NCBI RefSeq assembly: GCF_003019035.1
Contig: NZ_CP027447.1
From: Escherichia coli
Lineage (GTDB): Bacteria > Pseudomonadota > Gammaproteobacteria > Enterobacterales > Enterobacteriaceae
Direction: 5' to 3' (one strand)
Length of the DNA stretch: 64,000 bases
Shown here: positions 20,200 through 29,107 of the stretch, in pieces
Layout: each line of letters opens with the position of its first letter
How positions within the stretch are numbered: position 1 is the stretch's first letter
The notes under the pieces: generated by a model
The model's database searches: none
Told to the model about the DNA's origin: nothing
What the model saw: only the letters and a program-made list of their open reading frames with translations
Made by a program: the position numbers and the translations under genes

Positions 20200-20595
20200 A
20201 TGTGTGAAGGATATGTTGAAAAACCACTCTACTTGTTAATCGCCGAATGGATGATGGCTGAAAATCGGTGGGTGATAGCAAGAGAGATCTCTATTCATTT
20301 CGATATTGAACACAGCAAGGCGGTTAATACCCTGACTTATATTCTGTCGGAAGTCACAGAAATAAGCTGCGAAGTTAAGATGATCCCTAATAAGCTGGAA
20401 GGGCGGGGATGCCAGTGTCAGCGACTGGTTAAAGTGGTCGATATCGATGAGCAAATTTACGCGCGCCTGCGCAATAACAGCCGGGATAAATTAGTCGGCG
20501 TAAGAAAGACGCCGCGTATTCCTGCCGTTCCGCTCACGGAACTTAACCGCGAGCAGAAGTGGCAGATGATGTTGTCAAAGAGTATGCGTCGTTAA
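20200..20595 (+). CDS. caiF: Transcriptional activator of the cai and fix operons
   Basis: Recognised CaiF N-terminus MCEGYVEKPLYLLIAEWMM begins at ATG 20200 (131 aa); the supplied ORF extends upstream. Confidence 0.88.
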   Translation: MCEGYVEKPLYLLIAEWMMAENRWVIAREISIHFDIEHSKAVNTLTYILSEVTEISCEVKMIPNKLEGRGCQCQRLVKVVDIDEQIYARLRNNSRDKLVGVRKTPRIPAVPLTELNREQKWQMMLSKSMRR

Positions 20596-26349: not shown

Positions 26350-27867
<1,518 letters not shown>

Positions 27868-28114
27868 TTAATTCCACTGTGAAAACGAATATTTATTTTG
27901 CGTTCCCGTTTGTTTTATTTTTGTTAACATTTAATATAATTATTATTAACCTCGTGGACGCGTTAATGGCTAACTCATAATGGGTATTCAATTGGCTGCG
28001 TTCTGTGATGTTAGTCACAGTTTTTTATCGGGTAAAAACAGGGCATCTTTGTGTAAATATTCATTGTTTATCAATGTGATGAGTTTGGTTGTGAGTAAAA
28101 AAATAGCATCTGAC

Positions 28115-28149
28115 TTTCAATATTGGTGATCCATAAAGCAATATTGAAA
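28115..28149. promoter_or_regulatory. Putative CaiF binding site 1: 11-bp inverted repeat with 13-bp spacer
   Basis: TTTCAATATTG (28115-28125), 13-bp spacer, CAATATTGAAA (28139-28149), in the cai-fix divergent control region; matches the reported CaiF site architecture as I recall it. Confidence 0.55.
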
Positions 28150-28171
28150 ATTTCTTTTTGCTACGCCATGT

Positions 28172-28206
28172 TTTCAATATTGGTGAGGAACTTAACAATA
28201 TTGAAA
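28172..28206. promoter_or_regulatory. Putative CaiF binding site 2: same inverted repeat with 13-bp spacer
   Basis: TTTCAATATTG (28172-28182), 13-bp spacer, CAATATTGAAA (28196-28206). Confidence 0.55.
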
Positions 28207-28230
28207 GTTGGGTTTATCTGCGTGTGACAT

Positions 28231-28245
28231 TTTCAATATTGGTGA
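28231..28245. promoter_or_regulatory. Third copy of TTTCAATATTGGTGA without inverted partner
   Basis: Exact 15-mer shared with sites 1 and 2, preceded by GTGTGACA (CRP half-site-like), about 90 bp before fixA. Confidence 0.35.
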
Positions 28246-28336
28246 TTAAAGTTTTATTTCCAAATTAAAGGGCGTGATATCTGTAATTAACACCACCGAT
28301 ATGAACGACGTTTCCTTCATGATTTCTGGAGATGCA

Positions 28337-29107
28337 ATGAAGATTATTACTTGCTATAAGTGCGTGCCTGATGAACAGGATATTGCGGTCAATAATGCTG
28401 ATGGTTCGTTAGACTTCAGTAAAGCCGATGCCAAAATAAGCCAATACGATCTCAACGCTATTGAAGCGGCTTGCCAGCTAAAGCAACAGGCAGCAGAGGG
28501 GCAGGTGACGGCCTTAAGTGTGGGCGGTAAAGCCCTGACCAACGCCAAAGGGCGTAAAGATGTGCTATCGCGCGGTCCGGATGAACTGATTGTGGTGATT
28601 GATGACCAGTTCGAGCAGGCACTGCCGCAACAAACGGCGACCGCACTGGCTGCTGCCGCCCAGAAAGCAGGCTTTGATTTGATCCTCTGTGGCGATGGTT
28701 CTTCCGACCTTTATGCCCAGCAGGTTGGTTTGCTGGTAGGCGAAATCCTCAATATTCCGGCAGTTAACGGCGTCAGCAAAATTATCTCCCTGACGGCAGA
28801 TACCCTCACCGTTGAGCGCGAACTGGAAGATGAAACAGAAACGTTAAGCATTCCGCTGCCTGCGGTTGTTGCTGTTTCCACTGATATCAACTCCCCACAA
28901 ATTCCTTCGATGAAAGCTATTCTCGGCGCGGCGAAAAAGCCCGTCCAGGTATGGTCGGCGGCGGATATCGGTTTTAACGCAGAGGCAGCCTGGTCAGAAC
29001 AACAGGTTGCCGCGCCGAAACAGCGCGAGCGTCAGCGCATCGTGATTGAAGGCGACGGCGAAGAACAGATCGCCGCATTTGCTGAAAATCTTCGCAAAGT
29101 CATTTAA
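28337..29107 (+). CDS. fixA: Electron transfer flavoprotein beta-subunit homolog
   Basis: Recognised FixA N-terminus [18 protein letters not shown] at ATG 28337 (256 aa); the supplied ORF extends upstream. Confidence 0.9.

Follow-up and report, generated by a model that had tools for sequence, protein, structure and literature searches.

What is the role of a third copy of a regulator half-site that stands without a partner beside fixA in the cai-fix control region of Escherichia coli? The cai-fix locus is a classic case in which CRP and a pathway-specific regulator jointly activate divergent promoters, and it is contained in the 64-kb stretch of DNA analysed here, the whole of which is termed the window. 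The caiT-fixA intergenic region was assigned to 27865-28336 after its context bounds had been corrected, and exact copies of TTTCAATATTGGTGA occur three times on its plus strand, at 28115-28129, 28172-28186 and 28231-28245, with no further copy in the 64 kb. The features that frame the question are the following.

20200-20595, plus strand: caiF, the regulator gene, an open reading frame matching Pfam PF07180 CaiF_GrlA
26350-27864, minus strand: caiT, the first gene of caiTABCDE
28115-28149, plus strand: CaiF site F1, TTTCAATATTG-N13-CAATATTGAAA, with arms at 28115-28125 and 28139-28149
28172-28206, plus strand: CaiF site F2, of the same architecture as F1, with arms at 28172-28182 and 28196-28206
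28231-28245, plus strand: copy 3, an exact 15-mer consisting of a lone left-arm half-site and GTGA, without a right arm
28337-29107, plus strand: fixA, the first gene of fixABCX, with its ATG at 28337

The triple occurrence of the 15-mer cannot be chance. When up to three mismatches were allowed, TTTCAATATTGGTGA gave 12 matches in the window against a shuffle mean of 2.1, a count that none of 100 shuffles reached, and a repeat search returned the copies as a three-member direct repeat family with spacings of 57 and 59 bp. A sequence-only reading of this DNA had already pointed to three copies in the control region, two of them full sites, and both statements proved exact: the copies begin at 28115, 28172 and 28231, and the repeat search recovered two inverted repeats whose 11-nt arms are perfect and stand 13 nt apart. 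The architecture that this reading had given for CaiF sites likewise agrees with the published consensus, in which F1 and F2 are each given as 5'-TTTCAATATTG-N13-CAATATTGAAA-3' in the passages of PMC12083890 and PMC3680233 that cite Buchet et al. Elsewhere in the window, the search for other copies of the motif returned none except the near-palindrome TTCGATATTGAA at 20299-20310, which lies within the caiF coding sequence, differs from the CaiF core by one mismatch, and is probably a chance match, as the 10-mer gave 11 one-mismatch matches against 5.8 expected.

Copies 1 and 2 are the already published sites F1 and F2 and constitute the known part of the result. Each of the two 15-mers is composed of the left arm of F1 or F2 plus GTGA, and both copies display inverted half-sites, a 13-bp gap and a location between caiT and fixA in a genome that encodes caiF; F1 and F2 share 73% identity over 51 nt. 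The result is thus mostly a re-discovery, and what it adds is the third element, a candidate that is computationally well supported. In the accessible literature, a scope outside which the Buchet 1998 and 1999 papers themselves lie, only F1 and F2 are described, with neither a third site nor binding or expression data for copy 3; the primary papers may conceivably discuss copy 3, or the absence of a footprint there.

Copy 3, which contains TTCAATATTG, is constructed in another way. It had been described beforehand as unpaired, and its right-arm position, 28255-28265, is indeed occupied by TATTTCCAAAT, in which only 4 of 11 positions agree with CAATATTGAAA; in 20 genera the same place is taken by a conserved GTWTTATTT block. 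Because the inverted repeat is missing, copy 3 is not filed as an F1/F2-type operator and is treated as a candidate CaiF half-site operator within the core promoter. A shifted right arm, CCAAATTAAAG at 28260-28270 (7/11, with an 18-bp spacer), was considered and dismissed as chance, since its columns are unconserved across genera. Copy 3 forms the 5' half of a 29-bp module, and its surroundings comprise the following elements.

28224-28229, plus strand: -35-like hexamer GTGACA of a sigma70-like match
28232-28260, plus strand: conserved 29-bp fix core-promoter module, TTCAATATTGGTGA-N5-GTtTTATTTt, from a 20-genus profile
28247-28252, plus strand: -10-like hexamer TAAAGT of the sigma70-like match, 17 bp from GTGACA
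28252-28257, plus strand: alternative -10-like hexamer TTTTAT, the version conserved across the order in the multi-genus comparison
28273-28287, plus strand: second conserved patch CGTGATATCTGTAAT, in the presumed fix leader, with the 20-genus consensus c.TG.TAt.T.Tatt

GTGACA-17-TAAAGT was the sole sigma70-like match on the plus strand in 27800-28400, and copy 3 occupies its spacer (28230-28246); judging from the letters, this match would be the real fix promoter. The promoter can alternatively be read as TTTTCA-16-TTTTAT, with a 16-bp spacer. Other promoter types were tried and rejected: for an extended -10, the TG of GGTGA is displaced by one base from its proper place before TAAAGT, and a sigma54 promoter starting from TTGGTGA is contradicted by the lack of the -12 GC in all genera, where no GG-N10-GC fits. 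The patch CGTGATATCTGTAAT begins about 41 nt past the module start, and an Rfam search for an RNA element in the fix leader gave a chance match only (E 0.84).

The cai and fix promoters are each served by separate CRP molecules (PMC3105977). CRP-like motifs were located in the intergenic region as follows.

28005-28020, plus strand: perfect CRP consensus core TGTGATGTTAGTCACA, on the cai side
28125-28140, plus strand: CRP-like GGTGA-N6-AAGCA inside the F1 spacer, read from the sequence
28182-28197, plus strand: CRP-like GGTGA-N6-TAACA inside the F2 spacer, read from the sequence

All three 15-mers end in GGTGA, and in F1 and F2 this tail serves as the left half of the nested CRP-like motifs. 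Matches to CRP that start from the tail reach 8/10 in F2, 7/10 in F1 and 6/10 in copy 3 (GGTGA-N6-TTTTA), where the right half scores 2/5. Across taxa the tail is fixed and the CRP-like right halves are variable, and lone copies, in which such a right half is missing, preserve the tail just as well. The sequence-only reading had further placed a CRP-like TGTGA next to copy 3; the adjacency stands (28223-28227), but the CRP assignment does not. Read as TGTGA-N6-TCACA, the left half matches at 5/5 and the right half, CAATA, at 2/5, which leaves the CRP dyad incomplete, and a CRP site there would be centred within the core promoter, about 29 nt upstream of the presumed start. Because the right half is absent, this TGTGA is more readily taken for a piece of the -35-like GTGACA than for a CRP site.

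The transcription start sites can be placed from reported figures. The cai and fix start sites are said to lie 289 bp apart in the 1998 abstract of Buchet, which reportedly also puts a perfect CRP site at -41.5 of cai and CRP sites 2 and 3 at -69.5 and -126.5 of fix, and which is said to describe a 50-bp stretch in cis, lying across the start of the fix mRNA, as necessary for cai transcription. If TGTGATGTTAGTCACA at 28005-28020 is taken to be CRP site 1, the fix start presumably falls at 28259/28260, and the figures would put CRP site 2 on GGTGA-N6-TAACA in the F2 spacer (centre 28189.5) and CRP site 3 on GGTGA-N6-AAGCA in the F1 spacer (centre 28132.5). On this assumption the reported figures (289 bp, -41.5, -69.5/-126.5) are consistent with one another and with the sigma70-like match. 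The 11-mer of copy 3 would presumably lie at about -28 to -18 of a start at 28259/28260, and the reported 50-bp segment over the fix start would, on the same assumption, exclude F2, whose end is 53 bp short of that start, and could include copy 3.

The evolutionary reach of the element was examined in 80 loci obtained by a caiT-based scan with one genome per species, from which 56 enterobacterial loci with a divergent fixA, the window included, were compared. The 14-mer TTCAATATTGGTGA was exact in 50 of the 56, carried one mismatch in 4 and two mismatches in 1, and was lost in 1; it is degenerate solely in Entomohabitans. The enterobacterial cai-fix loci yielded a 29-bp module consensus, TTCAATATTGGTGA-N5-GTWTTATTT, and a profile of 20 genera anchored on this module revealed unconserved flanks around one block of near-maximal information, TTCAATATTGGTGAt..AgGTtTTATTTt, which corresponds to 28232-28260 of the window. 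On these alignments, copy 3 is the most conserved element of the control region across the enterobacteria. Exact 14-mers numbered 120 in the 640 kb of fetched loci, and all of them were found in cai-fix intergenic regions and on the fixA-sense strand.

The position of the module is also retained, at about 105 nt before the fixA ATG from Escherichia to Proteus/Providencia. Full inverted-repeat sites vary from locus to locus (none in 11, one in 12, two in 25 and three in 8 of the 56), and among the 44 loci with full sites, the distance from the nearest full-site left arm downstream to the module is 59-61 bp in 40 and 118 bp in the remaining 4. In Proteus, three full sites and a lone module are arrayed at -283, -224, -165 and -106 with an exact spacing of 59 bp, which is one full CaiF-type site more than in E. 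coli. No CaiF-type motif other than the lone module occurs in 11 loci, which belong to Edwardsiella, Hafnia, Serratia H1w, Leminorella, Limnobaculum and Budvicia. The 21.5-kb cluster contains one module in Edwardsiella, one in Hafnia and two, in tandem, in Budvicia; the tandem modules of the two Budvicia loci are 27 bp apart and, relative to the fixA ATG, occupy -339 to -283 and -307 to -251, which indicates that the module itself can duplicate.

Two further observations were made outside the module. In three loci of Leminorella and Limnobaculum, a perfect right arm CAATATTGAAA is situated just before the fixA ribosome-binding site, about -35 from the ATG and 233 bp downstream of the lone left-arm module. 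In the Edwardsiella locus L085, the intergenic DNA between caiF and the abhydrolase gene carries TGCAATATTCGTGA at 3081-3094, which departs from the 14-mer at two positions and faces the abhydrolase gene; this element is absent at the corresponding Hafnia locus.

Comparison of the profiles also disclosed the polarity of the sites. The left arm and gTGA are common to full and lone sites, and the inner flank of the right arm differs between them, so that the 'palindromic' sites are polar; the unit common to all copies is, in these profiles, an asymmetric element of about 14 bp. The -10-like segment of the module reads TTTTAT in E. coli, TATTAT in Hafnia and Edwardsiella, and TTTAAT in Proteus. 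The GTGACA hexamer is conserved only in the Escherichia/Salmonella/Citrobacter-type clade and not order-wide, and the -35 is weakly kept in Edwardsiella, Limnobaculum and Serratia (GTAACA, GTGACA and GCAACA). Scans of Hafnia, Proteus and Edwardsiella returned no sigma70-like match overlapping the module, with counts at or below shuffle expectation, and the start site therefore cannot be placed in these genera. A -35 hexamer that is not kept order-wide, together with the lack of a sigma70-like match over the module in these three genera, is a pattern typical of activator-dependent promoters.

Within E. coli, the three copies are unchanged in K-12-like strains, UTI89 and O-antigen-diverse strains. 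The 35-mer 28224-28258, which takes in copy 3 and both the -35 and the -10 hexamer, recurs with 100% identity in 5320 E. coli genomes, and the intergenic region of the window is 90-95% identical to that of 4722 of 5391 genomes, with the divergence concentrated at 27990-28100. This segment, which separates the perfect CRP site from F1, is hypervariable when Escherichia lineages are compared, and F1, F2 and copy 3 are invariant among them. The window itself represents an allele with an additional TGTGATGAG at about 28076, which reaches at least 99% identity in only 171 of 5391 E. coli genomes. Of 5403 matches to this intergenic region, 3 were on plasmid-annotated records, and in the swine isolate E. 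coli SFE8 (locus L004, 601-1448) an IS26 lies about 248 bp into the intergenic region, replacing F1, F2, copy 3 and fixA.

The properties of the regulator bear on how such an element might be recognized. CaiF of the window matched PF07180 CaiF_GrlA with 28.5 bits (cut-off 25), and its closest solved relative is GrlA (4KT5_C), as retrieved by phmmer (E 0.001) and by Foldseek on the model (E 1.3e-4). The AlphaFold2 model, with a mean pLDDT of 75 and a core above 90, contains three helices and a long beta-hairpin wing that carries an invariant GRGCQCQR, and Foldseek ranked GrlA best, followed by MarR-type winged-helix proteins; CaiF is thus predicted to be a winged-helix protein, a single domain of which, through its recognition helix and wing, could plausibly cover an element of 10-14 bp. 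The status of a monomeric activator of the AraC/XylS type has been claimed for CaiF (PMC5806209). This assignment was rejected, in that Pfam returned PF07180 alone, with no AraC-type HTH signal even at E<=10, and the model is a winged helix with MarR-type neighbours.

CaiF orthologues of Edwardsiella, Hafnia and Budvicia are encoded beside the fix operon, share 44-55% identity and match PF07180. Four residues, Y11, N43, Y47 and R75, are invariant across 20 orthologues including those of the three genera, and alanine substitutions at these positions impaired the CaiF biosensor (PMC12083890). In the divergent cai/fix cluster of Shewanella corallii, neither a CaiF_GrlA gene within 10 kb nor the module was found.

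Taken together, copy 3 is probably a functional CaiF target, because it is embedded in the core promoter of fixA and no other piece of the region is as conserved; the evidence for CaiF at this place consists of sequence, promoter position, conservation, polarity, co-occurrence with CaiF and the predicted fold. At slightly better than even chances, a single CaiF protomer would bind copy 3 between -35 and -10 and activate fix directly, a proposal in which binding, stoichiometry and positive sign are all deduced. Copy 3 would then be the regulator-recognition half of a deeply conserved module of about 29 bp, TTCAATATTGGTGA-N5-GTWTTATTT, and one CaiF winged-helix protomer would sit on an asymmetric 10-14-bp element at about -28 to -14 in E. 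coli and activate fixABCX directly by contacting RNA polymerase or reshaping the promoter, in the way reported for the related GrlA at the LEE1 P1 spacer. F1 and F2 would represent lineage-specific additions, 0 to 3 per species, with nested CRP-like motifs, which may add CRP synergy and serve the distant cai promoter.

The identity of the copy 3 half-site with the arms of the published CaiF sites supports direct activation from copy 3. Against it, the published model of a CaiF dimer presupposes a dyad, which is missing from the half-site, the fix spacer has the optimal 17 bp and is not over-long as in activation of the MerR or GrlA type, and the fix and LEE1 P1 spacers have no sequence similarity. 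Moreover, the promoter coordinates of the module are uncertain outside the E. coli clade, where no sigma70-like match overlaps it, and the binding of a protein between -35 and -10 is just as compatible with repression.

The last point leads to an unlikely though coherent alternative, in which CaiF at copy 3 would act as a brake or switch by occluding RNA polymerase, and activation would proceed from F1 and F2 with CRP; fix could be repressed without inducer, in the manner of apo-MerR, or capped when CaiF is abundant. A place between the -35 and -10 of the sigma70-like match is typical of repressor operators, and in Proteus a chance-level sigma70 match would even put the module at about +1. The lone module is, however, the sole CaiF-type motif in 11 loci, the three genera checked encode CaiF, and a purely negative site would leave their operons without a route to CaiF-dependent induction. 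A similarly low probability is given to a mainly architectural role, in which CaiF at copy 3 would act over a long range, by bridging to F1/F2 or displacing H-NS, and fire the cai promoter about 290 bp away. Carnitine metabolism is repressed by H-NS (PMC2131755), which accords with such a role. So does the distance of 59-61 bp to the nearest full site in 40 of the 44 loci. The 50-bp cis segment reportedly described in 1998 presumably can hold copy 3 but not F2. Yet 59 bp corresponds to about 5.6 helical turns, so that successive left arms would face different sides of the helix, and lone-module species offer nothing to bridge to; moreover, this role is compatible with direct activation of fix from copy 3.

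It is also improbable, and a shade more so, that CaiF does not bind copy 3 and that the block is kept for RNA polymerase or another factor such as CRP or ArcA, F1 and F2 having arisen by duplication of a promoter segment. The extension of the conserved block into the -10 region (GTWTTATTT), the resemblance of the GGTGA tail to a CRP half-site and the tandem duplication of the module seen in Budvicia fit this explanation. However, base-for-base conservation of a spacer across an order is not normal for promoters, and the conserved bases are exactly the CaiF arm, co-occurring with CaiF orthologues that have conserved DNA-contact residues; the CRP-like right half is absent (TTTTA or TATTA match TCACA at 2/5), and no sigma54-type GG-N10-GC fits. 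As for a non-functional relic of recent local duplication, three identical 15-mers within 131 bp would suit it, and the 73% identity of F1 and F2 over 51 nt suggests a duplication, but copy 3 is exact and fixed in position and polarity from Escherichia to Budvicia amid adjacent DNA that is unalignable, and the 35-mer is 100% identical in 5320 E. coli genomes vs 90-95% for the intergenic region in 4722 of 5391; the conservation data effectively refute this explanation, which is left with a very slight probability.

Beyond direct activation of fix by CaiF from copy 3, a wider proposal may be put forward tentatively, and it is rather doubtful in its full extent: the lone module would be the ancestral and principal CaiF operator, the mode of a single protomer in the core promoter would be family-wide and shared with GrlA, and the complex at fix would license the cai promoter about 290 bp away. 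To our knowledge, no explanation has been offered for the reported requirement of the 50-bp segment over the fix start in cai transcription, and the ancestral-operator proposal, if true, would explain it.

CaiF and the fix promoter are in use as an L-carnitine biosensor (PMC12083890). If copy 3 were the main CaiF target, the minimal sensor promoter would change, as would the stoichiometry assumed for CaiF on DNA, and the CaiF/GrlA family would activate from a non-palindromic site inside a core promoter. Copy 3 would in that case be a concrete candidate for what lies behind the old deletion result, which reportedly showed that DNA at the fix start is needed for cai expression.

Comparison with known systems places copy 3 between several types of operator. 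With F1 and F2 it shares the identical left arm, the GTGA tail, the intergenic region and the polarity, but it differs from them in lacking the right arm, in being placed within the core promoter of fix and not upstream, and in being more widely conserved. Another relative is the target of GrlA, which may activate LEE1 P1 in a MerR-like manner from an 18-bp spacer without dyad symmetry, as stated in the part of PMC4730234 that cites Islam 2011. CaiF and GrlA both belong to PF07180, and the reported target of GrlA and the putative one of CaiF at copy 3 each lie within the -35/-10 spacer and are free of dyad symmetry, whereas the spacer measures 18 bp in LEE1 P1 (TTGACA-18-TACACA, upstream of ler in the retrieved sequence) and 17 bp in fix, and the two spacers share no sequence. 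A global alignment of them scored -1, with 65% of shuffles as good or better, and since there is no spacer similarity the parallel is architectural only.

With respect to activation from within the spacer in general, copy 3 was found between the hexamers and its putative regulator in the CaiF/GrlA family, and the over-long spacer was lacking, as 17 bp falls short of the supra-optimal 18-19 bp. The likeness to MerR consists in a candidate operator between -35 and -10, on which the regulator may stay bound with and without effector, but MerR operators are dyad-symmetric in 19-bp spacers and the winged helix of CaiF belongs to another family. Finally, CaiF has no AraC-type HTH signal and its predicted fold is a MarR-like winged helix, unlike MarA, SoxS and Rob, but its putative target at copy 3 resembles the class II sites of these activators in being an asymmetric element of fixed orientation that overlaps the core promoter, in a module whose -35 is poor or absent in most genera.
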